From the NCBI GenBank assembly GCA_036268235.1, contig DATAUN010000071.1, positions 1 to 46,983 on the forward strand: a stretch of 46,983 bases of DNA, in the 5' to 3' direction. Both the position numbers and the translations under genes were made by a program. Below the pieces are notes generated by a model. That model saw only the letters and a list, made by a program, of their open reading frames with translations, was not told where the DNA came from and did no database searches. Numbering within the stretch: the first letter of the stretch is position 1; each line of letters starts with the position of its first letter. Source of the DNA: Gaiellaceae bacterium (GTDB lineage: Bacteria > Actinomycetota > Thermoleophilia > Gaiellales > Gaiellaceae). Positions 11,940 through 26,632 of this stretch are shown one piece after another.

Positions 11940-12719
11940 GTGCGCGTCGCAGCTCTCGGGCTCGTGCTGTGCTCGCTGCTCCTCGCCGCGTCGGCGAGCG
12001 CAGACGGTGACCCGGCGAGCGACTATCTGATCCAGCAGGACGTCTTCCTGCCCTACCCGCCGCCGCCGGCGAGTGCGTCGAAGCAGCTGAACGCGGCCGT
12101 CGCCACCGTTGCGGCGAAGGGCGACCGCGTGAAGGTTGCGGTGATCGCGACCGCGCAGGATCTCGGCTCGGTACCGGGCCTCTTCGGGCAACCGCAGGCC
12201 TACGCGAAGTTCCTCGGGACGGAGCTCGCGTTCGTCTACAAGGGGCCGCTGCTGATCGTCATGCCCGCCGGGCTCGGCTTCTACGACAACGGCGCCGCCG
12301 GGGCGACGCTCACGGGCGAGCACGTCTCAGGCCCGAGCGCCGCCGACCTGACGACGTCGGCGGCGACGGTCGTCGGCGCGCTCGAGCGTGCAGGGGCGCT
12401 CCACTACAAGGACACCTTCAAGCCGACCGCGTCGGTGACACCCGAGACCGGCACGGCCGGCAAAACGCTGCTCCTCCGCTACCAGGCCTGGGACGACAGC
12501 GGCAGCGTCCGCCTCACGCTCCAGGTCGACACCGCCGCGAACCGGCAGCTCGCCGCGTTCACGGTCCCGTTCCGCACCGTGCGCGAGGGCGCGTGGTACG
12601 GCGTGCCCTGGAAGATCCCGCAAAACGAGGCGCACAAGGCGCTCGTTCTCTGCGTCCGCGCCACCGACCACGCCGGGAATCGCAGCAACACAACCTGCGC
12701 GAAGCTCTCCGTGCTCTAA
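11940..12719 (+). CDS. Secreted protein of unknown function, paralog A (N-terminal domain shared with 15591..16217)
   Basis: GTG start 4 nt after the panB stop. Signal peptide ...LLLAASASA then DGDPASDYL. About 95-aa block alignable to the 15591 protein (DGDPASD, V.VA.I, DLGSV/DMGSV, PQ.YAKFLG/ARFLG, FVYK, L..VMP.G). High GC3. Confidence 0.65.
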   Translation: MRVAALGLVLCSLLLAASASADGDPASDYLIQQDVFLPYPPPPASASKQLNAAVATVAAKGDRVKVAVIATAQDLGSVPGLFGQPQAYAKFLGTELAFVYKGPLLIVMPAGLGFYDNGAAGATLTGEHVSGPSAADLTTSAATVVGALERAGALHYKDTFKPTASVTPETGTAGKTLLLRYQAWDDSGSVRLTLQVDTAANRQLAAFTVPFRTVREGAWYGVPWKIPQNEAHKALVLCVRATDHAGNRSNTTCAKLSVL

Positions 12720-12722
12720 CCT

Positions 12723-13313
12723 ATGAGCGTGCGCCCGCGCTCGAGCGGCCTACTTCTCGTCCCGGCGGCTGCGCTGGTCGTTCACCAGGCGCGCTACACG
12801 CTTGCCTACGGCTCACACGCGAACGCGGAGCTCGCCGCGCAGGGGCACTCGTACCTCAACTCGGTGATCCCGTGGACGATCCTCGCGCTCGGCCTCGGCG
12901 CCTCCGCGTTCCTGCACCGCCTCGCGCGGACCACGCGCACGGGCGACCACGGGCGGTTCAGCCGCGTCTCGGCTCCCGCACTGTGGCTGCTCACGACCGC
13001 CGGCTTGATCGCGATCTACTCGATCCAGGAAACGCTCGAGGGGATGATGATCTCCGGCCATCCCGGCGGCGTCGCCGGTGTCTTCGGCCACGGCGGCTGG
13101 TGGGCCGTTCCCGTCGCCGCACTCGTCTCGGTCGCGGTCGTCGCGCTCCTGCAGGTCGGACGCGCAATGCTGCGGCTCGCGGTCGGGCTCGCGCCGCCGC
13201 ACGCGCGCGAAACGCTCGCTCGCCTTCTCTTCCCGGTCGCCCCCATGCTGCTCGTGCCCGCGCCGCTCGCGCGCGCGGCCGCGGGCCGGGCGCCTCCGCA
13301 CGTTCGCAGCTGA
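12723..13313 (+). CDS. Integral membrane protein, unknown function (about 4 TM segments)
   Basis: Hydrophobic segments LLLVPAAALVV, IPWTILALGLGASAFL, ALWLLTTAGLIAIYSI, WWAVPVAALVSVAVVALL. 3-nt gap to the upstream gene. Confidence 0.6.
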   Translation: MSVRPRSSGLLLVPAAALVVHQARYTLAYGSHANAELAAQGHSYLNSVIPWTILALGLGASAFLHRLARTTRTGDHGRFSRVSAPALWLLTTAGLIAIYSIQETLEGMMISGHPGGVAGVFGHGGWWAVPVAALVSVAVVALLQVGRAMLRLAVGLAPPHARETLARLLFPVAPMLLVPAPLARAAAGRAPPHVRS

Positions 13314-13343
13314 CGTAGTTCCTGCGAACACCGAAGGAGGCTC

Positions 13344-14258
13344 GTGAAACGAGGCACGATCGTGCTGCTGCTCGCCTGCGTGACACTCGCGCTACCTGCG
13401 CGTGCGTCGGCGCACGCGCGCTCGGCGACGGTCGCCCTCGACTACCGCCTCGTGCTCGACCGGGAAACGCGTTCGCTGCCCGGTGTCACGGTCGGCATCC
13501 TCGACGGGGACCGCTCGCTGCACGTCGTGACGCACGGCTCGACGATCGTCGTCGACGGCGATCTCGGCGAGTCGATGCTGCGCATCGGCCCGGCGGGCGT
13601 CTGGGTCAACCAGGCGTCGGTGACCGCAGCGGCCGAGAAGCTCGCGACCGCCGGCCACGGCTGGAAGAAGCTCTCGTCGGCGACGGCGTACACATGGCAC
13701 GAGCACCGCCTCGCTCCGCCGCCCTGGCAGTCGCGCACCGGCGCCGTCGCGCAGTTCGCGATCGCCGCGAAGATCGACGGGAAGCGCGCGCAGATCGGAG
13801 GGACGTTCGTCCGCTACTCGCGTCCCGTGATGTGGCCCTGGCTCGGCGCCGCACTCGCATTCGCGGCGCTCGTTGTGCTCGCGCTCCGGCTCGGTCGGCC
13901 GTTGACAACCGCGCTCGGTGCGCTCGCCGGCCTCGCCGCGCTCGCGTCGCTCGTCGCCTTCTCGGTCGCGGACGCGCCGAACGGCCGCGTCGCGTGGGTG
14001 CAGATCGTGCTCGGAATCGGACTTGGCGCGGCGATGTACGGCGCGCTCGTCCGCGCGCACGGACCGCGGCGATCTGCGATCGCCGGCCTGCTCGGAGGCG
14101 CTGCGGCTGCCGTCAGCCTCGGCTCGCTCGGCGTCTTCCGCCACGGCGTCGTCATCTCGGCGCTGCCGGCGACAGCGAGTCGCATCCTCGTGGAGATCGC
14201 GTTCATCGCCGGCGTCGCCGCAGCCGCGACGAGTCTGCGCAGGGAGAGCCTCCGGTGA
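13344..14258 (+). CDS. Signal-peptide protein with a ~150-aa extracytoplasmic domain followed by a polytopic membrane domain. Predicted mature N-terminus is His.
   Basis: MKRGTIVLLLACVTLALPARASA|HARSATV. GAAGGAGG lies upstream of the GTG. The C-terminal half has at least 4 hydrophobic helices (WPWLGAALAFAALVVLAL, ALGALAGLAALASLVAF, WVQIVLGIGLGAAMYGAL, and others). Confidence 0.65.
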   Translation: MKRGTIVLLLACVTLALPARASAHARSATVALDYRLVLDRETRSLPGVTVGILDGDRSLHVVTHGSTIVVDGDLGESMLRIGPAGVWVNQASVTAAAEKLATAGHGWKKLSSATAYTWHEHRLAPPPWQSRTGAVAQFAIAAKIDGKRAQIGGTFVRYSRPVMWPWLGAALAFAALVVLALRLGRPLTTALGALAGLAALASLVAFSVADAPNGRVAWVQIVLGIGLGAAMYGALVRAHGPRRSAIAGLLGGAAAAVSLGSLGVFRHGVVISALPATASRILVEIAFIAGVAAAATSLRRESLR

Positions 14259-14746
14259 TCGCCTCGGCTCCCGGCCCCATCCATCCGTGGCCGATCGGCG
14301 TCGGCCCGCGCTACCAGCCCGCGGCGGCGAACGTCGCCGTGCTCGACGGCCGGCGCGTCGACGGGATGCAGTGCGCGAATGGAAAGCGGTTCGCGGTGCA
14401 CCTCGAGCTGTTCGCAAATCGCCGAGTCGCGATCGTGCCGCGCGGAGTCGGCGTCGCGCGCAGCGGGTGCCGCTACCCGCTCTCGACCAACGCTCCGACC
14501 GGCGTCGTCCAAGTGCTCGAGAGCCGCAACGCGACGCTCGCAGATGTGTTCCGCATCTGGGGCCGCGCGCTCTCGCCGGTGCAGCTGCTCTCGTTCCGCG
14601 GCCCCGTCTCCGTGTTCGTCGACGGCAAGCGCTTCACCGGGAAACCGGGGACGGTGCCGCTGACGAAACACGCGGAGATCGTCGTCGAGGTCGGCGGCCA
14701 CGTCGCCCCACACGTGAACTACCTCTTCCCGAAAGGAGTCGGATGA
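14255..14746 (+). CDS. Hypothetical protein (163 aa), no obvious signal peptide
   Basis: GTG at 14255 overlaps the upstream stop (GTGA). High GC3. Pattern FAVHLELFANRRVAIVPRGVGV...LADVFRIWG...VFVDGKRFTG recalls an uncharacterised family I cannot name. The start is uncertain. Confidence 0.5.
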   Translation: MIASAPGPIHPWPIGVGPRYQPAAANVAVLDGRRVDGMQCANGKRFAVHLELFANRRVAIVPRGVGVARSGCRYPLSTNAPTGVVQVLESRNATLADVFRIWGRALSPVQLLSFRGPVSVFVDGKRFTGKPGTVPLTKHAEIVVEVGGHVAPHVNYLFPKGVG

Positions 14747-15594
14747 CCCGGCGCTTGCTCGTCCTGTTCGTTCCGGCGCTGCTCCTGACAGCGTGCGGTG
14801 GCGGCTCGTCCCCGACGTCGGGCGGGCTGCCGACGATCGAGGCCGCAAAGCAGTTCACACTCACGCAGTTCACACCGTCGGCGGCCGTCGTCGCCGGGAA
14901 GCCGGTTCGCGTCTCGTTCGTGATCCAGCAGCCAAATGGCAAGCCGTTGACGCAGTTCAAGCGCGGCGCGGGGCCGCACACCGGCGTGCACCTGATCATC
15001 GTGCGCCGCGACCTCGCAACGATCATCCACACACACCCGCCGATCGCGCCCGACGGGACGATCGCGACGACGGTGACGTTCACGAAACCGGGCCCGTACC
15101 GCGTCGTCGTCGATGCGTATCCCAAGAACGCACTCGAGCCGAACTTCCAGCTGTTCACGTCGCTGCGCGTCGCCGGGACGTACACGCCGAAGAAGCTGCC
15201 GCCGTACTCGCCGAGCGACAAGGTCGACGGCTACACGATCACGCTGCTCGGGAAGCCGGACCTGCACGCGATCCAGGCCGACTACCTGCATGCGACGGTG
15301 ACTGCGCCGGACGGGAAGCCGGCGACGTTCACGCCGTGGTTCGGCGCTCTCGCGCACGCGATCTTCTTCCGTAACGGCTCGCTCGACTACTTCCACACGC
15401 ATATCTGCTCGCCGAGCGAGACCGCCTGCGCGGCGACGGTCGGCAGCACGCGCATCGCGGGCACCTCCTCGACGCCGGGGAAGCTGAAGATCGGCGTGCT
15501 CGTCCCCGAAGCCGGGACGTGGGAGCTGTTCCTCCAGTGCCGCGTCGACGGGCACATCCTCACCGCGCCCTTCACGCTGGACGTGAAGCCGTGA
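14743..15594 (+). CDS. Lipoprotein with two tandem His-motif beta-sandwich-like repeats (putative metal-binding)
   Basis: Lipobox LLLTAC. Repeat 1 is GVHLIIVRRDLATIIHTHPP...PGPYRVVVDAYP. Repeat 2 is AHAIFFRNGSLDYFHTHICSP...AGTWELFLQCRVDG. ATGA overlap with the upstream gene. Confidence 0.7.
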   Translation: MTRRLLVLFVPALLLTACGGGSSPTSGGLPTIEAAKQFTLTQFTPSAAVVAGKPVRVSFVIQQPNGKPLTQFKRGAGPHTGVHLIIVRRDLATIIHTHPPIAPDGTIATTVTFTKPGPYRVVVDAYPKNALEPNFQLFTSLRVAGTYTPKKLPPYSPSDKVDGYTITLLGKPDLHAIQADYLHATVTAPDGKPATFTPWFGALAHAIFFRNGSLDYFHTHICSPSETACAATVGSTRIAGTSSTPGKLKIGVLVPEAGTWELFLQCRVDGHILTAPFTLDVKP

Positions 15595-16217
15595 GGCTGA
15601 TTGCCGCCCTCCTCGTCGTCGCAGCGCTCGCCGTTCCGGCGGCGGCGCGCGCCGACGGCGATCCCGCGAGCGACTGGCTGCTCACGCAGGCGACGTTCGT
15701 GCCGCAGGACGACGGCGTCCCCACCGCGTATGCCCAGCAACTGCAGGCCGTGGTCGCCGATGCGAAGGCGCGCGGCTACGTCATCCGCGTCGCGCTGATC
15801 GGGACGGAGTACGACATGGGGTCTGTGTACTCGCGCTGGCGGCAGCCACAGCCGTACGCGCGCTTCCTCGGCCAGGAGCTCTACTTCGTCTACAAGAAGC
15901 GACTGCTCGTCGTGATGCCGAACGGACTCGCCGTCACCAACGGCGGCAAGGTCGACCCGACCGAGCAGGCTGTGGTCGACCGGATCCCGCCGCCGGTTGC
16001 GAATCACGCGGCGCTCGCGTCTGCCGCGACGAACGCGGTGATCAAGCTCGCCGCGAACGCGGGAATCGTCCTGACGACACCAACGCTCGGCAAGACGACT
16101 TCGGGAACCTCGGAGAACCAGGACCGGGTGGTGATCGCGGCGGTGGCACTCGTCGTTGCGGCATTGCTGGTTGCCGGCGGCTTCCTCCGCAAGCGACGAA
16201 AGGCGGCGGTCCGTTGA
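15591..16217 (+). CDS. Secreted/anchored protein of unknown function, paralog B (same N-terminal domain as 11940..12719, plus a C-terminal TM anchor)
   Basis: Signal ...AVPAAARA then DGDPASDWL. Conserved blocks as in paralog A. C-terminal VVIAAVALVVAALLVAGGFLRKRRK. GTGA overlap upstream and TTGA overlap with sco downstream. Confidence 0.65.
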   Translation: MRLIAALLVVAALAVPAAARADGDPASDWLLTQATFVPQDDGVPTAYAQQLQAVVADAKARGYVIRVALIGTEYDMGSVYSRWRQPQPYARFLGQELYFVYKKRLLVVMPNGLAVTNGGKVDPTEQAVVDRIPPPVANHAALASAATNAVIKLAANAGIVLTTPTLGKTTSGTSENQDRVVIAAVALVVAALLVAGGFLRKRRKAAVR

Positions 16218-16798
16218 AGAAGCTCCTGCTCATACTCGCGGCCGGGGCGCTCTGCGCAGGCTGCGGCAGCTCATCGCCCGCGTCTGTGACGACGCCGACG
16301 CACCCGCCCGCGCCGCAGAACGACGGCGCGATCATCCAGGCAGCACCCGCGCCGGCGTTCAGCCTGCGCGACCAGTCGGGACGGCTCGTCGGCCCGCAGC
16401 AGGACCGCGGCCACTGGACGATCGTCACGTTCCTCTACACGCATTGCCCCGACGTCTGCCCGCTCGTCACGAACCAGCTCGCGGCCGCGCAGCGCGTGAG
16501 CCCCGACCTGCGCGTGATCGCGGTCAGCGTCGACCCCAAGCGCGACACACCGGCGGCCGTCAAGCACTTCCTCGCCATCCACCACACCGGCCCGCGCTTC
16601 CGGTACGTGGTCGGCTCGACCGCAGCGCTCGAGCACGTGTGGGCGCTGTACCACGTCGCCTCCGTCGCCGGCCCAAACGGAACGGTCACGCACAGCACCT
16701 ACGAGATCCTCATCGACCCGAAGGGACGCGAGCGCGTCTTCTTCGACTCGAAGGTCGCCGCACACGACGTCACCTCGATGCTCAAGCGCCTCGCCTAA
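16214..16798 (+). CDS. SCO1/SenC-family copper chaperone / thiol-disulfide oxidoreductase lipoprotein
   Basis: Lipobox LCAGCG. FLYTHCPDVCP (CxxxC) and the downstream H of the Cu site (VTHST). SVDPKRDTP. Confidence 0.9.
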   Translation: MKKLLLILAAGALCAGCGSSSPASVTTPTHPPAPQNDGAIIQAAPAPAFSLRDQSGRLVGPQQDRGHWTIVTFLYTHCPDVCPLVTNQLAAAQRVSPDLRVIAVSVDPKRDTPAAVKHFLAIHHTGPRFRYVVGSTAALEHVWALYHVASVAGPNGTVTHSTYEILIDPKGRERVFFDSKVAAHDVTSMLKRLA

Positions 16799-16810
16799 AG
16801 GAGAAGCACC

Positions 16811-17410
16811 ATGCCCAGCCGCACCAGACTGATCGCCATCGCCGCCGTGTGCGGCATCGCACTCGCGCTCGCGAGCTCGGCGTTCGCGCATGCGCGTCTC
16901 AGCCCGCCTGTGTCTGTCTCCGGGCAGCTGCAGCTCTACAGCCTCGCCGTCCCGACGGAGAAGGCGAACCTGAAGACGACGAAGATCGTCCTGACCGTCC
17001 CGGCCGGCTTCGGCATCGACTCGTTCGTGCCGCCGCCCACGGGCTGGACGCAGCAGATCCAGCAGACGGGCTCCGGCGACAGCGCAGTCGTGCAAAAGGT
17101 GACCTGGACCGGCGGCAACGTGCCGACCGGCGAGGACTCGCTGTTCCAGTTCCTCGCGCAACCTGCGAAGTCGGGCACGTACACGTTTGACGTGCAGCAG
17201 ACCTACTCGGACGGCTCGATCGTCGACTGGAACCAGGCCGAGTCCGGCGCGAACCCGGCGCCGGCGATCCAGGCGAAGAGCTCGCTCGGCGGCGGCGGGA
17301 CACCGACGCTGACGATCGTCGCGCTCGTTCTCGGTGCGCTCGGGATCCTGATCGGCGGCGTCGCGCTGCTCGGCCGCGGTAGTGGTGGCGGAGGCCGGCA
17401 GCTCGCATGA
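16811..17410 (+). CDS. ycnI: YcnI-family (DUF1775) copper-binding protein with a C-terminal TM anchor
   Basis: Signal ...ASSAFA|HARLSP (N-terminal His after cleavage). Pattern VPTE..., W.G, Q.YSDGS.V.W. TM segment LTIVALVLGALGILIGGVALL. AAAGGAG RBS. Confidence 0.85.
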   Translation: MPSRTRLIAIAAVCGIALALASSAFAHARLSPPVSVSGQLQLYSLAVPTEKANLKTTKIVLTVPAGFGIDSFVPPPTGWTQQIQQTGSGDSAVVQKVTWTGGNVPTGEDSLFQFLAQPAKSGTYTFDVQQTYSDGSIVDWNQAESGANPAPAIQAKSSLGGGGTPTLTIVALVLGALGILIGGVALLGRGSGGGGRQLA

Positions 17411-19125
17411 GAATCCGGGGGCGGATTGCTGCAGCAACGCTCGTCGTTGGGGTCGGGCTCGCCCTGCCCGCGGTCGCGTCGGCGCATGCCTACCTGACCA
17501 AGACCGTCCCGGCGGCAAGCGTCCAGCTGAGCAGTCCGCCCCCGAACATCCAGCTCACCTACGACGAGGCGGTCGAGCCTCGCTTCGCGGTGATCTCCGT
17601 CACCGATGTGAACGCGCACTCGGTGACGAGCGGCACCGTGACGCGCTCGCCGTCGAACCCCGACACGCTCATCATCCCGCTCAAGCGCATCCCCGAGGGC
17701 TGGTACCTCGTCTACTGGCGCGCGATCTCGGTCGACGGGCACCCGGTGCAGGGAGCGTTCACCTTCGCCGTCGGCCCGAACGCGGGTCCTGCGCCGCAAT
17801 TCGTGGTCCCGCACATCGCGCAGACGGCGACGTCGACGCCGCTTCTGATCGCGCGCTGGCTCTCGTTCCTCACCGTGATGACGGCGATCGGGCTCTTCAT
17901 CCTGCGCACACTCATTGCGCGGCCGCTCGTCGGTCGCGTGCCCGGAACGACGCTGCGCGGCGTCTCGGTCGCGTTCTTCGTCTCGGCGGCACTCGCGATC
18001 GTCGCGATCCCCGCCTACCTCGAGGAGTCGACGGCGATCGACTCGCTGCGCTCGTTCTTCTCGTTCGGCGCGCTCGTGCCACTCTGGCGGACGACGGCGT
18101 TCGGGCGCGGCTGGTTCGACCTGTGGATCTGTTTCCTGCTGTTCGTCTTCGCGGGCGCCGTCGCGCTCGCCGTCGACCGGCCCGAGCTGCCGCGGCGCAC
18201 GATCGCGTCCCTGCTCGCGCTCCCCGGCGCGCTCGCGGCGGCGGCAGCGGTGCTCGTCCTGCCGGGCGCAAGCGGCCACGCCGGCCAGACGTCGCCCCGG
18301 GGCCTCGCGGTGCTGTTGGACTGGCTGCACCTCGTCTCCGGGTCGGTGTGGCTCGGTGGACTGATCGGCCTGCTCGTGCTCTGGCGCAGCCTGCCGGCCG
18401 CGAAGCGCGTCGCCGGCCTCGTCGTCTGCGTGCCGCGCTTCTCGAACGTCGCGTTCGTCTCGGTGCTCGTGCTGCTCGGGAGCGGCGTGTGGGCGTCGAT
18501 CCTGCACCTGCCCGTGCTCGACGCGCTGTGGCTCACGAGCTACGGCAAGGTGATCCTGATCAAGGCGGCGATCCTGCTCGCGACGCTGCCGCTTGCTGCA
18601 GGCAACCTGCTCCGGAACAAGCCGCAACTCGGACGCGCCGAGCTGAGCGAGCGTGCCACGAAGCGGCTGCGCGCATTCGTCGCCGGTGAGGCGTTCCTCG
18701 TCGCCGGCGCAGTGTTCGCAGCCGCGCTGCTCTCGAGCCTCGCGCCGCCGCCGCCCGCCTTCGCGAAGGAGGGATCGGCACTCGCCAAGGTCGGGCCCGG
18801 CCGCGTCTCGTCGGTGTCGCACGTCGACGGCTACACGTTGAAGCTGCTCGTCAGCCCGAATCGCGCGATCGCCGAGAACGCCTTCGCGCTCGAGCTGAGC
18901 AGAGGCGGCAAGCCCGTGCGCGGCGCGACGGTCACGGCTGCGTTCAACCAGCTGGACATGGTGATGCCCCAGCAGGAGTACAGCCTCGTCGAGACGCAGC
19001 CCGGCCTCTACACGCGCAGGGCGGCGCCGCTCGTCATGGTCGGAACCTGGGGCCTCACGTTCGACGTCACACCGAAGCAGGGAACGCCGTTCGAGGCCAC
19101 GATCGTCGACCGGGCAAACGGATGA
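17407..19125 (+). CDS. CopC-CopD fusion protein (YcnJ-like) with a C-terminal YtkA/FixH-like domain
   Basis: Signal ...AVASA|HAYLTKTVP and W.A.S.DGHP.QG (CopC). At least 8 TM helices (CopD). C-terminal soluble domain GYTLKLLVSP...MVMPQQEYSL...GTWGLTFDV. ATGA overlap with ycnI. Confidence 0.9.
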   Translation: MRIRGRIAAATLVVGVGLALPAVASAHAYLTKTVPAASVQLSSPPPNIQLTYDEAVEPRFAVISVTDVNAHSVTSGTVTRSPSNPDTLIIPLKRIPEGWYLVYWRAISVDGHPVQGAFTFAVGPNAGPAPQFVVPHIAQTATSTPLLIARWLSFLTVMTAIGLFILRTLIARPLVGRVPGTTLRGVSVAFFVSAALAIVAIPAYLEESTAIDSLRSFFSFGALVPLWRTTAFGRGWFDLWICFLLFVFAGAVALAVDRPELPRRTIASLLALPGALAAAAAVLVLPGASGHAGQTSPRGLAVLLDWLHLVSGSVWLGGLIGLLVLWRSLPAAKRVAGLVVCVPRFSNVAFVSVLVLLGSGVWASILHLPVLDALWLTSYGKVILIKAAILLATLPLAAGNLLRNKPQLGRAELSERATKRLRAFVAGEAFLVAGAVFAAALLSSLAPPPPAFAKEGSALAKVGPGRVSSVSHVDGYTLKLLVSPNRAIAENAFALELSRGGKPVRGATVTAAFNQLDMVMPQQEYSLVETQPGLYTRRAAPLVMVGTWGLTFDVTPKQGTPFEATIVDRANG

Positions 19126-19229
19126 GAAACCTCCCACCCCAGCTGCTGCTCGCACTCTCGTTCGCGGCGCTCGCCGCAGGCGCGGTCGCCGTGATCCTCG
19201 CGGTGCTGATCCTGCGGACCGTGCTCTAG
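19122..19229 (+). CDS. Candidate 35-aa single-TM micro-protein translationally coupled to copCD
   Basis: ATG overlaps the copCD TGA (ATGA). Translation is MRNLPPQLLLALSFAALAAGAVAVILAVLILRTVL*. Below the ORF-track size cutoff. High GC3. Confidence 0.35.
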   Translation: MRNLPPQLLLALSFAALAAGAVAVILAVLILRTVL

Positions 19230-23411: not shown

Positions 23412-23798
23412 GTGGGCTCGCCGGACTTCGACCTCGTTGCTGCTTCGCTGCGCGCCGACCGCGGCGACCTCGAAGCCTTCGTCGAGGCGCTCGCCGTGAA
23501 GCTCGAGGGCGCCTTGCCCGGGGCGGCGAGAGTGAGCCGCGGGGGCGGCCGGCTCTTCGGCGGGGGCACGAAGCGCGTCGAGCGAATCGCGGTGCAGCTC
23601 GGCCCCGACGAGTACGAGCTGGAGCACGGACGAGGAGCGCTCGATTGCCGCCGGCGGACCGTCGTGCGCGGCATCGCGCTCAAGAACGAGACTCTGTCGG
23701 TGGACGAGTGGATCGACGCGGTCTCGCGCGCGCTCGTCGCCGAAGCCGACGAGAGCGAGCATGCGCGCATCGCGCTCGAGAGGCTGCTCGACGCATGA
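23412..23798 (+). CDS. Hypothetical protein (~128 aa), first gene of the operon divergent from uvrA
   Basis: High GC3. C-terminal region ...SVDEWIDAVSRALVAEADESEHARIALERLL. The stop overlaps the next ATG (ATGA). The start is uncertain. The GTG at 23412 is proposed, the in-frame GTG at 23373 lies inside the SOS box, and the track start at 23211 is inside uvrA. Confidence 0.5.
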   Translation: MGSPDFDLVAASLRADRGDLEAFVEALAVKLEGALPGAARVSRGGGRLFGGGTKRVERIAVQLGPDEYELEHGRGALDCRRRTVVRGIALKNETLSVDEWIDAVSRALVAEADESEHARIALERLLDA

Positions 23799-24682
23799 CC
23801 GACGAGCGCAGCGCCCGCGATCTCGCGTCGATCGAGGCGGGCGGCATCCCGCTCGCGGCGCAGGAGCGCCTCGACGCGGTCAAGGCGCGCGGCGGACGAT
23901 TCTTCACGAGCGACCTGTCGACGAACGAGTTTCTCCTGACGCGGCAGGCGGGCTTCCAGCCGATCACGCAGGTGATGGGCTCGAGCGTCTACCACGTCGG
24001 CTGGCAGCAGATGCCTTGGGCGTCGTCGTGGTCGTTCCCGGACGGCGGCTCGACCGAGCTCGACGTGATCACCAACGCCTGGAACGAGGCGCGCGGCCGC
24101 GCGCTCGGGCGGCTCGCCGAGGAGGCCAAGCGCGCGGGCGCGGACGCGGTCGTCGGTGTCAGGCTCGCGCGCGGCGGCTTCGAGTGGATGGGCGACCTCG
24201 TCGAGTTCACCTCGTTCGGAACGGCGATGCGCTCGACGCGCTACGCCATCGAGGACGCCCCCGTGCTCTCGAACCTGTCCGGCCAGGACTTCGCGAAGCT
24301 CTATCTGAACGGCTACTGGCCGGTCGGCCTCGTCGCGGCGACGAGCGTGACCTACATCGTGTCGAGCTGGTCGACGCAGCGCGCCCAGCGCGGCTTCGCA
24401 GCGCGGATGCAGAACCAGGAGCTGACCGACTACACCCAAGGGCTCTACGACGCGCGCACCCGCGCGATCATGCGCCTCCAGCGGCAAGCGCACGAGGCCG
24501 GCGCGCACGGCGTCGTCGGCGTCGAGATCGAGCAGCACCACGCGGAGCGCGAGGTCGAGCAAAACGGCTCGCGCACGGATTTGATCGTCACGTTGCACGT
24601 CGTAGGAACCGCAATCGTCGAGCTCGCGACCGATGAGCTCCCGCCCACGTACATCGCCCTATCCCTGAAGGAGAACGCATGA
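23795..24682 (+). CDS. Protein with two tandem YbjQ/UPF0145 (DUF74, so-called heavy-metal-binding) domains
   Basis: Domain 1 is FFTSDLSTNEFLL...EARGRALGRLAEEAKRAGADAVVGVRL...FTSFGTAM. Domain 2 is LSGQDFAKL...DARTRAIMRLQRQAHEAGAHGVVGVEI...LHVVGTAI. 295 aa from the ATG at 23795. Confidence 0.8.
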   Translation: MTDERSARDLASIEAGGIPLAAQERLDAVKARGGRFFTSDLSTNEFLLTRQAGFQPITQVMGSSVYHVGWQQMPWASSWSFPDGGSTELDVITNAWNEARGRALGRLAEEAKRAGADAVVGVRLARGGFEWMGDLVEFTSFGTAMRSTRYAIEDAPVLSNLSGQDFAKLYLNGYWPVGLVAATSVTYIVSSWSTQRAQRGFAARMQNQELTDYTQGLYDARTRAIMRLQRQAHEAGAHGVVGVEIEQHHAEREVEQNGSRTDLIVTLHVVGTAIVELATDELPPTYIALSLKENA

Positions 24683-25542
24683 GCGACGACCTCCAAGAGC
24701 AGGAGCAGTACGAGGCCGGATCGACGGTCGGCATCCCCGAGCACGGCCGCGAGCGGCTCGCGAAGATGAAGGGCCACGGCTTCTTCACGAGCGACCTCTC
24801 CGTGAACGAGTTCCTGCTCGTCAAGGAGGCCGGCTTCGATCCGCTCGGGCTCGTCGTCGGCAGCTCGATCTACCACATCGGCTTCCAGGCGGGGCAGTGG
24901 AACCAGAGCCAGGAGATGGACGTCCTGACGCAGGCGATGTACCACGCGCGCGAGCTCGCGATGACGCGGATGGAGGAGGAGGCCGACCAGCTCGGCGCGG
25001 ACGGGGTCGTCGGCGTGCGGCTCGACGTGTCGCGGTACGAATGGGGCGGCGAGCTTGCGGAGTTCATCGCGATCGGCACCGCGGTGCGCCATCGCGAAGG
25101 CGTCCTGCATCGCGCGCCCAACGGTCGCCCGTTCACGAGCGACCTCACCGGCCAGGACTTCTGGACGCTCCTCTCCGCCGGCTACCGGCCGGTCGGGATG
25201 GTCATGGGCACGTGCGTCTACCACGTCGCGCACCAGGGCCTCAGCGGCTGGTTCAAGCGCGTCGGCCGCAACACGGAGATGCCGAACTACACGCAGGCGC
25301 TCTACGACGCGCGCGAGCTGGCGATGGAGCGGATGCAGACGGAGGCGGAAGCGCTCGGCGCGGAGGGCATCGTCGGCGTGCAGCTGCACGAGGGCTCGCA
25401 CGGCTGGAGCTCGCACGTGATCGAGTACTTCGCCGTCGGCACGGCGATCGTCCCGACCTCGGACGACCACACGATCCCGACGCCGTCCCTGGTGCTCACT
25501 CTGAACGACGGCCCGCGGCAGGACCGGCTCAGCGGCTTCTAG
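24679..25542 (+). CDS. Paralogous protein with two tandem YbjQ/UPF0145 domains
   Basis: FFTSDLSVNEFLL...HARELAMTRMEEEADQLGADGVVGVRL...FIAIGTAV, then LTGQDFWTL...DARELAMERMQTEAEALGAEGIVGVQL...YFAVGTAI. ATGA overlap with the upstream paralog. Confidence 0.8.
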   Translation: MSDDLQEQEQYEAGSTVGIPEHGRERLAKMKGHGFFTSDLSVNEFLLVKEAGFDPLGLVVGSSIYHIGFQAGQWNQSQEMDVLTQAMYHARELAMTRMEEEADQLGADGVVGVRLDVSRYEWGGELAEFIAIGTAVRHREGVLHRAPNGRPFTSDLTGQDFWTLLSAGYRPVGMVMGTCVYHVAHQGLSGWFKRVGRNTEMPNYTQALYDARELAMERMQTEAEALGAEGIVGVQLHEGSHGWSSHVIEYFAVGTAIVPTSDDHTIPTPSLVLTLNDGPRQDRLSGF

Positions 25543-25576: not shown

Positions 25577-26632
25577 ATGACCGGGACCGCCAAACGCGTC
25601 GCGATCGCCACGCTCGTCGCCGGCGGGATCGTCGTCGTCGGCCTCGCGCTCTGGAAGCTCCGCCTGGTGGTCGGGCTCCTGTTCGCGGCGATGATCATCG
25701 CCGCCGCGCTGCGCCCGAGCGTCGAGTGGCTCGTGCGCCGCCGGACGCCGAAGGTGGCCGCGGTGCTGATCCACTACGTCGTGCTCTTCGGGATGATCGG
25801 CGTCGCTCTCGCCTACGCCGGGCCCGCGGCGAAGCACCAGGTCGACCATGCGTTGAGCCCGAGCGGCAAGGCGGCGATCGCGCACGCGGCGAAGCACTCG
25901 ACCGGCGTCAAGCATCAGCTGCTCGTTGCGCTGCAGAAGCGGCTGAATCACCTGCCGTCGAAATCGCAGCTGATCAAGCCCGCTGCGCAGATTGGCCTGA
26001 AGGCGTTCGAGGTCCTGATCGGCGTCTTCTTCACGTTCGCGGCGGCGGCGTACTGGATCTTCGAGCGCGACAAGGCAGTGGACGTCGTGTGCTCGTTGCT
26101 CGAGCGACCGAAGCGCAAAAAGGTGCGCGACACGTGGACGCTGATCGACCTTCGCCTCGGCGCGTTCGTGCGCGGTCAGGTGCTGTTGATCTGCGCGGTC
26201 GGCACCGCGCTCTCGCTCGCGTTCTGGGCGATCGGCGAGCCGTACTGGATCCTCGTCGGCAGCTTCGCCGGGCTCGTCGAGATGATCCCCGTGATCGGGC
26301 CGCTCTCCGCGGGTGTGCTCGCAGTCGCGGTTGGGTTCACGGCGTCGGTGACGGTGGCGATCGCCGCGGCGATTTGCGTGCTCGCGGTGCGCCTGCTGGA
26401 GGACTACGCGGTCATGCCGAAGGTGCTCGGCGACGCCGTGGGGCTCTCGCCGCTCCTCGTGCTCGTGTCGGTGACGGCCGTCGGGATCCTCTTCAGCGGC
26501 TGGGCGGTGCTGTTCGCGGTGCCGATCGCCGCGGTCGCGATGACGCTGTTCGACGTGGTGCTGCGCGACGTCGACCCCGCCGAGGAAGACGTTCCGGCGG
26601 TGATCTTCTCACCGAAGGAGGCGGAGGCTTAG
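25577..26632 (+). CDS. AI-2E family transporter (PerM/UPF0118)
   Basis: 351 aa, about 8 TM helices, and a conserved C-terminal block [20 protein letters not shown] typical of the family. Confidence 0.85.

Follow-up and report, generated by a model that had tools for sequence, protein, structure and literature searches.

Why are three recognisable extracytoplasmic copper genes packed into one unit with seven genes that belong to no curated family? This question is raised by a stretch of 46,983 nucleotides from a Gaiellaceae bacterium (contig DATAUN010000071.1 of assembly GCA_036268235.1; "the window" hereafter means this whole stretch), in which ten genes on the + strand span positions 11940-19229 and are referred to, in this order, as g1 to g6, sco, ycnI, copCD and g10. 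To our knowledge, bacterial copper acquisition and the loading of copper onto exported and membrane enzymes are poorly understood, and we know of work on the pathway involving YcnI, YcnJ, CtaK and Sco only from 2020-2026 and only in Bacillus. We favor a reading in which the unit is probably an operon for extracytoplasmic copper capture, import and cuproenzyme loading, with a known core and lineage-specific partners; we claim with considerable confidence that the module has some part in copper handling. The core is known, while its lineage-specific extension is not described in the literature searched.

A ten-gene unit with a known copper core

All ten open reading frames (ORFs) are in frame in the translated window, and re-reading the sequence reproduced exactly the chain of same-strand ORFs and the junctions that had been described in an earlier reading made from the sequence alone (the sequence-only reading). 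There are gaps of 4 nt between panB and g1, 3 nt between g1 and g2, 30 nt between g2 and g3 and 12 nt between sco and ycnI, and six start/stop overlaps of 4 nt, i.e. GTGA (g3/g4 and g5/g6), ATGA (g4/g5, ycnI/copCD and copCD/g10) and TTGA (g6/sco). The sole sizeable intergenic gap holds a Shine-Dalgarno-like sequence, GAAGGAGG, at 13333-13340 (+) ahead of g3. A gene caller based on GC content at third codon positions (GC3) recovered the same genes, with the start of g3 placed internally at 13362, and GC3 is of the coding type in all ORFs of the unit. Scans for promoter and terminator consensus sequences found none and are uninformative at the GC content of ~70% of the window.

Three of the proteins belong to the copper families to which they had previously been assigned by eye, as judged by Pfam and NCBIfam, and their ligand residues are intact. 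sco (16214-16798, +) encodes a Sco1/SenC-type copper chaperone (SCO1-SenC, PF02630; E 1.9e-24, 86.6 bits versus a cut-off of 22.8) that carries a CPDVCP motif and, with a lipoprotein-like N-terminus (...ALCAG followed by C), is probably a lipoprotein. ycnI (16811-17410, +) encodes a YcnI/DUF1775 Cu(II)-binding protein (PF07987; E 7.5e-16, 59.3 bits versus a cut-off of 25) with a hydrophobic C-terminal segment assigned as a transmembrane (TM) helix. Three residues do not vary among 39 homologs, namely E50, W140 and H27, the last of which follows AFA and is predicted to start the mature protein; they correspond to Glu50, Trp137 and His27, respectively, of the mono-histidine brace of Bacillus subtilis YcnI (PMC8424229). 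copCD (17407-19125, +) encodes a CopC-CopD-YtkA fusion, i.e. a YcnJ-like putative copper importer, in which all three domains score above the Pfam cut-off (CopC, 4e-19 and 69.9 bits; CopD, 1e-14 and 55.2 bits; YtkA, 1e-7 and 32.8 bits) and in which H27, D110 and H112 of CopC, H291 and H308 of CopD, and M518 and M520 of YtkA are invariant.

For g1-g6 and g10, nothing significant was found in Pfam or NCBIfam, and PDB profile searches with g1/g6, g2, g3, g4 and g5 gave no meaningful match. The statement in the sequence-only reading that the six upstream proteins are nameless therefore holds for curated families (Pfam, NCBIfam and PDB); it has to be softened for g5, which is remotely YtkA-like, and for g4, which has remote homologs outside the lineage.

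The gene set persists while its surroundings change

Is this set of genes more than a local accident? A scan of one genome per GTDB species with g5 returned 555 loci, of which the best 80 were taken with 10-kb flanks. These loci have g5 identities of 55-75% and all come from Thermoleophilia-type metagenome-assembled genomes; where 81 loci are mentioned, the window is included. By tblastn, g1/g6 was detected in 74 of the 80 loci, g4 in 70, ycnI in 65, copCD in 63, g3 in 61, g2 in 40, sco in 36 and panB/panC in 3. All 1629 genes called within 10 kb of g5 were also clustered independently of the window. The most widespread families among the 81 loci were those of g5 (81), g1/g6 (74, making this the commonest partner of g5), g3 (62), ycnI (62), copCD (60), g4 (52), sco (37) and g2 (33). 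In other words, the eight commonest families are exactly the eight of the window, and the next family occurs in only 16 loci. Divergent g2-like genes (subfamilies c8 and c14) add 25 more, giving g2-like genes in 58 of the 81 loci. Where 8 kb or more of sequence was available to each side of g5, 50 of 53 loci have ycnI, copCD or sco within 8 kb of it; over all 81 loci, module genes on the same strand are separated by a median of -4 nt.

The commonest gene order is g2-g3-g4-g5-ycnI-copCD-g6-sco; other arrangements include ycnI-copCD-g3-g4-g5-g6, an inverted g4 and a convergent sco, and in eight loci g2-g3-g4-g5-g6-sco is kept without ycnI or copCD nearby. The closest relative (L001) has no g1 copy between panB and g2 and no ycnI-copCD after sco, and module content thus varies even between near relatives. 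The arrangement is far beyond chance and, because flanks and gene order change while the module persists, the gene set is held together by selection and not by residual synteny. The co-occurrence of the unknown genes with sco, ycnI and copCD, for which the sequence-only reading had proposed a test, is strongly positive in these 80 species-level genomes, in which flanks and order change. The 4-nt gap to panB is correct as it had been given, and the junction is incidental; a functional linkage to panB was rejected, with panB/panC adjoining the module in only 3 of 80 loci.

These data also bear on the explanation that phylogenetic inertia or chance brought the unit together, the six ORFs being clade-specific fillers or partly not genes. 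The related loci do all belong to one class, and g1/g6, g2 and g3 were found nowhere else in the searches made. The non-conserved flanks (next family 16 of 81; panB 3 of 80) and the survival of the module through rearrangements and strand inversions argue against it, as do the coding GC3 of all ORFs, invariant residues in all of them across homologs down to ~20-30% identity, and the hundreds to thousands of homologs of g3, g4 and g5, the three proteins searched. We consider this explanation highly improbable.

g10 (19122-19229, +) encodes a 35-aa single-TM micro-protein, and in the related loci a hydrophobic ORF of 32-41 aa with the same ATGA overlap of the copCD stop follows 35 of 60 copCD genes, with the consensus R(L)LAALLALAAGAAAV...LLxRSVLG (seen in the window and L005-L078). 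The tenth ORF, which had been counted as part of the unit, is a real conserved membrane peptide. In 33 of the 80 related loci, or 34 of 81 with the window, the module has a Sco-family gene with a CxxxCP motif beside it, Sco being adjacent or nearby in ~42% of loci. These genes form two subtypes, one with CPDVCP and one with CRx[LFY]CP (mostly CRN/CRD), the latter lying on the opposite strand in 13 of 16 cases. The CRx[LFY]CP subtype with sco on the minus strand is seen in L004, L022, L024, L026, L029, L030, L064, L066, L075 and L077.

g5 is a tandem His-triad lipoprotein with relatives in many phyla

g5 (14743-15594, +) encodes a lipoprotein with a lipobox (LTA preceding the invariant C18; a lipobox is present in 62 of 81 members) and two Ig-like domains. 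Each domain has one His triad (H83/H96/H98 and H205/H218/H220); the triads are invariant and align with each other, while H79 and the pair C222/C229 are lineage-specific. The AlphaFold2 model (mean predicted local distance difference test score (pLDDT) 85.8) consists of two Ig-like beta-sandwiches, for which Foldseek matched only generic tandem Ig/Fn3 proteins. In hhalign comparisons, the two domains are related to each other (97.6%, E 4e-12), and domain 2 matches the YtkA domain of the operon's own CopCD (91.7%, E 7.8e-7, over just 46 columns); domain 1 versus the YtkA domain is not significant. A Streptomyces homolog with 37% identity passes the Pfam YtkA cut-off at 28 bits, and any YtkA match is present in 3 of 20 diverse members.

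The family is large. More than 5000 g5 homologs, all annotated as hypothetical, are mostly from Gaiellaceae/Thermoleophilia, and an exhaustive search gave 2173 representative clusters at 50% identity (E<1e-3). By tblastn, full-length relatives are present on 119 plasmids from Actinomycetota, Bacteroidota, Cyanobacteria, Bacillota and haloarchaea, and both His triads are kept in relatives down to ~31% identity. The relatives (X) occur as copZ-X-copA with a DUF4396 neighbour in Streptomyces, as copZ-X-copA-csoR on Rhodococcus plasmid pDK1, as X-copA in Pseudonocardia, near a cupredoxin, a P-ATPase, DUF305 and a resistance-nodulation-division (RND) system in Hymenobacter, and as sigC-X-...-anti-sigma-copper monooxygenase CAB on a plasmid of Mycobacterium dioxanotrophicus. 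SigC of M. tuberculosis counters copper starvation (PMC7924339). In the retrieved g5 loci of the copZ/copA type and of M. dioxanotrophicus, hidden Markov models (HMMs) of g1-g4 had no match.

The copZ/copA-linked proteins, exemplified by WP_016881567.1 of Rhodococcus sp. DK17 (pDK1) and WP_193317979.1 of Streptomyces, align with g5 over its full length at 31-37% identity and share its two-domain architecture and both His triads (HL...HxHP). Unlike g5, they are encoded in efflux/resistance loci and do not have the C222/C229 pair, and N-terminal linkers rich in His are frequent among them; unlike the window, these loci contain no g1-g4 homologs. On these alignments, g5 reads as a tandem, remotely YtkA/CtaK-like member of a broad, unnamed, multi-phylum copper-linked family, and within this unit it is the best candidate for a CtaK/PCuAC-type protein that partners Sco.

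In Solirubrobacterales-type loci (L049, 10001-12257; L071, 10001-11762; L063, L074 and L080), g5 adjoins genes for a DsbA-like thioredoxin and a VKOR homolog. Together with the C222/C229 pair of g5, these neighbours hint at a disulfide requirement.

Apparent fusions were also seen among the cluster representatives (P0410, P0458, P0482, P0378, P0476, P0475 and P0484), in the forms g5-YcnI(-CopC), g4-g5(-YcnI), g3...g5 and DUF4396-g5. They were set aside as evidence: they are metagenome singletons, some end mid-domain, and one indel at a 4-nt overlap would merge two genes. Gene calls merged by an indel in metagenome assembly probably account for most of them; the DUF4396-g5 fusion could be real, DUF4396 also being a neighbour in Streptomyces. 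The representatives do show that adjacency persists at 35-40% identity.

Do the unknown genes serve copper at all, or do they act in another envelope process, such as Zn, Ni or Fe handling or disulfide or lipoprotein maturation, and merely share a location with copper genes? His triads and sets of His, Glu and Cys are not copper-specific, the DsbA-like and VKOR neighbours of g5 would fit such a process, as would the eight loci without nearby ycnI/copCD, and the contexts of g4 relatives (see below) are mixed. Against this, a copper gene lies close to g5 in nearly all complete loci (the 50 of 53 above), the eight loci still keep Sco, relatives of g5 in four other phyla lie near HMA/CopZ, P-ATPase, CsoR-type regulator, cupredoxin and copper membrane monooxygenase (CuMMO) genes, and the N-terminal His of g3 matches the copper sites of its operon partners. 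We regard an unrelated envelope function as quite unlikely.

g3 has a predicted N-terminal His on a five-helix membrane protein

g3 (13344-14258, +) encodes a protein of 304 aa with a signal peptide, a beta-sandwich ectodomain and five TM helices. Its anatomy of a signal peptide and a polytopic domain, read earlier from the sequence, holds and is refined by AlphaFold2 to five helices (164-183, 188-209, 218-237, 241-259 and 276-302). The ectodomain is modeled with pLDDT mostly >90, the precursor model is of low confidence over residues 14-31, and the C-terminus is placed inside by the charge distribution. Among 45 homologs, A21, A23, H24, D54, G55, W107, W118, H119, R122 and R280 are invariant and H267 is nearly so. 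By the -3/-1 rule only, cleavage is predicted between ASA and HARS, making His24 the mature N-terminus, and the AxA-H arrangement is invariant. The mature chains of g3, YcnI and CopC are all predicted to begin with HA.

This shared N-terminus recalls histidine-brace proteins such as CopC, lytic polysaccharide monooxygenases, X325 and the PCuAC domains of PmoF, as well as YcnI with its mono-histidine brace (PMC10952591, PMC8424229): g3 combines a beta-sandwich with a predicted N-terminal His and the invariant, Trp-flanked H119. Unlike these proteins, g3 shows no significant similarity to them in sequence or structure, and its ectodomain is fused to five TM helices, an architecture undescribed for brace proteins. 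Foldseek against the PDB found nothing significant for g3 (best E 0.09; the X325 copper protein LaX325, E 0.26), and when the mature ectodomain was compared by hhalign with YcnI, CopC and YtkA, the probabilities were <=1.7%. The idea that g3 is a divergent YcnI was rejected: a first hhalign score of 91.7% spanned only the signal peptide and the first strand, and it was gone with the mature domains. A plasmid search found no homolog of g3. It is suggestive that the sequence features required for a histidine brace appear to be present in g3, whose ectodomain has a fold for which no relatives could be detected and is fused to a polytopic domain.

g4, g1/g6 and g2

g4 (14255-14746, +) encodes a protein of 163 aa with invariant H49, E51, C72 and H153. 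In the clade of the window it has no signal peptide, starts at a conserved PWPIG motif and overlaps the stop of g3; a signal peptide or a lipobox is present in more divergent copies from Thermoleophilia. The g4 HMM matches exported proteins of Paraburkholderia (E 1e-42, two tandem domains), Acidovorax (3e-22) and Mycolicibacterium chubuense (1e-17), which bear HxHxH and LHTHDxSG motifs that are lost from g4. Neither g4 nor the wider exported domain has a Pfam model, and g4 has no PDB match. As judged from these alignments, g4 belongs, in degenerate form, to a broader family of exported domains that has no name. Its relatives (loci L086-L088) are found beside DUF305 in Acidovorax and in a plasmid metal-resistance island in Mycolicibacterium.

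g1 (11940-12719, +; 259 aa) and g6 (15591-16217, +; 208 aa) encode secreted paralogs of one family, in which D[GA]DPASD is present in 87 of 90 members. g1 has a signal peptide, the mature N-terminus DGDPASD, an N-terminal domain of ~150 aa and a C-terminal Ig-like domain with two Cys that replaces the membrane anchor; in g6, this anchor consists of a TM helix at the C-terminus with an R/K cluster behind it. Across the family, g6-type copies have such an anchor at their end and g1-type copies the Ig-like domain. In Pfam, g1 has weak matches only (Big_12, E 0.023), and the family has only a sub-threshold signal to Rv1476 (7 of 49 members, best E 8.7e-4). A TPM-like domain, considered as a candidate for g1/g6, was unsupported by the PDB profile search and left only this sub-threshold Rv1476 signal. 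g6 had no homolog in the plasmid search.

g2 (12723-13313, +; 196 aa) encodes a small polytopic membrane protein, in which the sequence-only reading counted four TM helices. H21, Y25, H42, Y44, Q102, E103, E106, R189, P191 and P192 are invariant, and the motifs H..Y, GHxYL, QExLE and RxPP are common to g2 and the subfamilies c8 and c14. No Pfam, PDB or plasmid homolog was found for g2. Both g1/g6 and g2 are lineage-specific.

Surroundings of the unit

The unit is flanked upstream by tsaBDE, UDG, panC and panB and downstream by the gene for a Yip1 protein, uvrA and uvrB, and the 20 flanking genes of the window have only housekeeping functions by Pfam. The statement that no CopA/CsoR/CopZ efflux set, PCuAC or oxidase gene lies nearby was confirmed by Pfam on the flanks and by motif scans: P-type ATPase, HMA, CuA and COX1 motifs occur in none of the called window genes; the ten proteins have no match to PCuAC (PF04314) at E<=1, and no window gene has the H(M)x10Mx21HxM motif; and a P1B-ATPase, an HMA chaperone, a copper repressor or a multicopper oxidase is found neither in the window nor among the recurrent families near the module in the 80 loci. 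A conserved adjoining cytochrome oxidase or regulator was likewise rejected, the recurrent flanking families being NUDIX, dUTPase, HflX, FMN dehydrogenase, AAA ATPase, M20 peptidase, PstB-like ABC ATPase, aminotransferase and others. Separately, ~4.5 kb downstream of the operon lie two tandem paralogs (23795-25542 and 25577-26632), in each of which the YbjQ_1 domain ("putative heavy-metal-binding") is duplicated, and after them comes a transporter of the AI-2E family.

Work in Bacillus has shown that Cu(II) passes back and forth between YcnI and the CopC domain of YcnJ and that the two help cells to grow when copper is limiting (PMC12362106). Both heme-copper oxidases are supported by YcnJ, and the lipoprotein CtaK (=YtkA), which is partly redundant with the YtkA domain of YcnJ, cooperates with Sco to assemble CuA (PMC13344008). 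In general, CuA assembly at low copper needs Sco together with a PCuAC- or CtaK-type protein (PMC9145763).

This background and the surroundings of the unit bear on the explanation that it confers envelope copper tolerance, with the His-rich g5, g3, YcnI and CopC buffering or sequestering excess copper and Sco serving as a thiol-disulfide or copper buffer. Relatives of g5 in copZ-copA-csoR loci and in RND/DUF305/cupredoxin resistance islands, many of them on plasmids, fit this explanation, as do the g4 relative in the metal-resistance island of Mycolicibacterium and one published model, in which YcnI sequesters Cu(II) and limits its entry (PMC12362106). It is countered by the locus itself, which is chromosomal and lies amid housekeeping genes, with no P-type ATPase, multicopper oxidase, CsoR/CopY or RND pump conserved in the 80 loci or present in the window, and by the characterised YcnJ, YcnI, Sco and CtaK, which matter under copper limitation and in oxidase assembly (PMC13344008, PMC9145763). 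We consider a role in tolerance unlikely. The earlier proposal of uptake or metallation rather than resistance, a function that we infer, thus keeps the support of the missing efflux set; it is weakened for g5, because the g5 family usually lies beside efflux-type copZ/copA/csoR.

Discussion

We suggest a model in which the known core and its partners would act as one pathway. In this model, proteins with an N-terminal His would bind Cu(II) at the membrane surface, and copper would be swapped among these capture proteins and handed to CopD for import. Sco and the YtkA-type domains, i.e. g5 and the C-terminus of CopCD, would load exported or membrane cuproenzymes, most likely CuA of a heme-copper oxidase encoded elsewhere, with g5 in a role equivalent to that of CtaK or PCuAC. 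g2, the five-TM part of g3 and g10 would be membrane partners that serve as a scaffold or an extra conduit, and g1/g6 and g4 may act as accessory subunits, tethered or associated. That g3, g5, g4 and g2 bind metal, in which direction copper flows and which enzyme is the target are all matters that we infer.

Several observations weigh against this model. A cuproenzyme or a copper-responsive regulator is absent from the window and is not conserved in the related loci. All 80 related loci come from the single class Thermoleophilia, so their linkage could be partly inherited. g5 of the window scores under the Pfam YtkA (PF13115) cut-off (14.7 versus 25.9 bits) and does not share the Met residues found in the YtkA domain of CopCD, with no conserved Met among g5 homologs; its relatives outside the lineage lie mostly beside efflux-type copA, copZ and csoR, which fits detoxification as well as metallation. 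The ectodomain of g3 has no homology to any His-brace protein that Foldseek or hhalign could detect, and g4, which starts without a signal peptide in the clade of the window, is missing most of the His motifs of the wider family.

One of the closest known parallels to the unit is provided by B. subtilis ycnKJI together with Sco and CtaK. As there, the window encodes a YcnI with the same mono-His-brace residues, a YcnJ-type CopC-CopD-YtkA fusion that keeps the CopC and CopD histidines, a Sco with CxxxC and, in g5, a lipoprotein of YtkA-related domains (PMC8424229, PMC12362106, PMC13344008). Unlike ycnKJI, the window has no YcnK-type repressor, its sco lies inside the operon, and its further conserved g1/g6, g2, g3, g4 and g10 have no Bacillus counterpart. 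Unlike CtaK, g5 is a tandem of two domains with His triads, devoid of the conserved Met and below the YtkA cut-off.

Two other operons resemble the unit in composition. We take pcuABCDE of Bradyrhizobium japonicum and the sco operon of Streptomyces lividans to combine a Sco/PCuAC chaperone with a YcnI homolog and/or a CopC-CopD protein and to supply oxidases. Unlike them, the window has no PCuAC (DUF461), for which g5 is a proposed analogue, and they are without the extra membrane and secreted components of the window. PcuD is cited as a YcnI homolog in PMC8424229, and the S. lividans Sco operon is reported to hold two further copper genes (PMC3603459).

A bolder reading is that g2, g3, g4, g5, g6 and g10 form a new membrane-associated copper relay. 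Here, g3 would be a brace-type Cu(II) receptor on a five-TM domain, g3 and the His/Glu-bearing g2 would provide a translocation route distinct from CopD, and g5 would represent an unnamed multi-phylum chaperone family that partners CopA-type exporters or Sco/YcnI/CopCD depending on the lineage. We regard this reading as doubtful, and the model of a copper capture, import and loading operon with lineage-specific partners remains the one that we favor.

Gaiellales/Thermoleophilia are a large and abundant soil lineage, most of which is uncultured, and in them the core known from Bacillus travels with seven more conserved proteins of no curated family, so that these proteins are new candidates for components of copper acquisition and of enzyme loading in bacteria. 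Among them, g3 is a candidate for a new membrane-integral N-terminal-His copper site. The g5 family is widespread, occurs repeatedly within copZ-copA loci, is unnamed and unstudied, and would be testable in Streptomyces or Rhodococcus; the g4 domain family, which reaches Proteobacteria and mycobacteria, is likewise unnamed. If confirmed, these candidates would extend current models of how copper is imported and exported and of how CuA and CuB are assembled.

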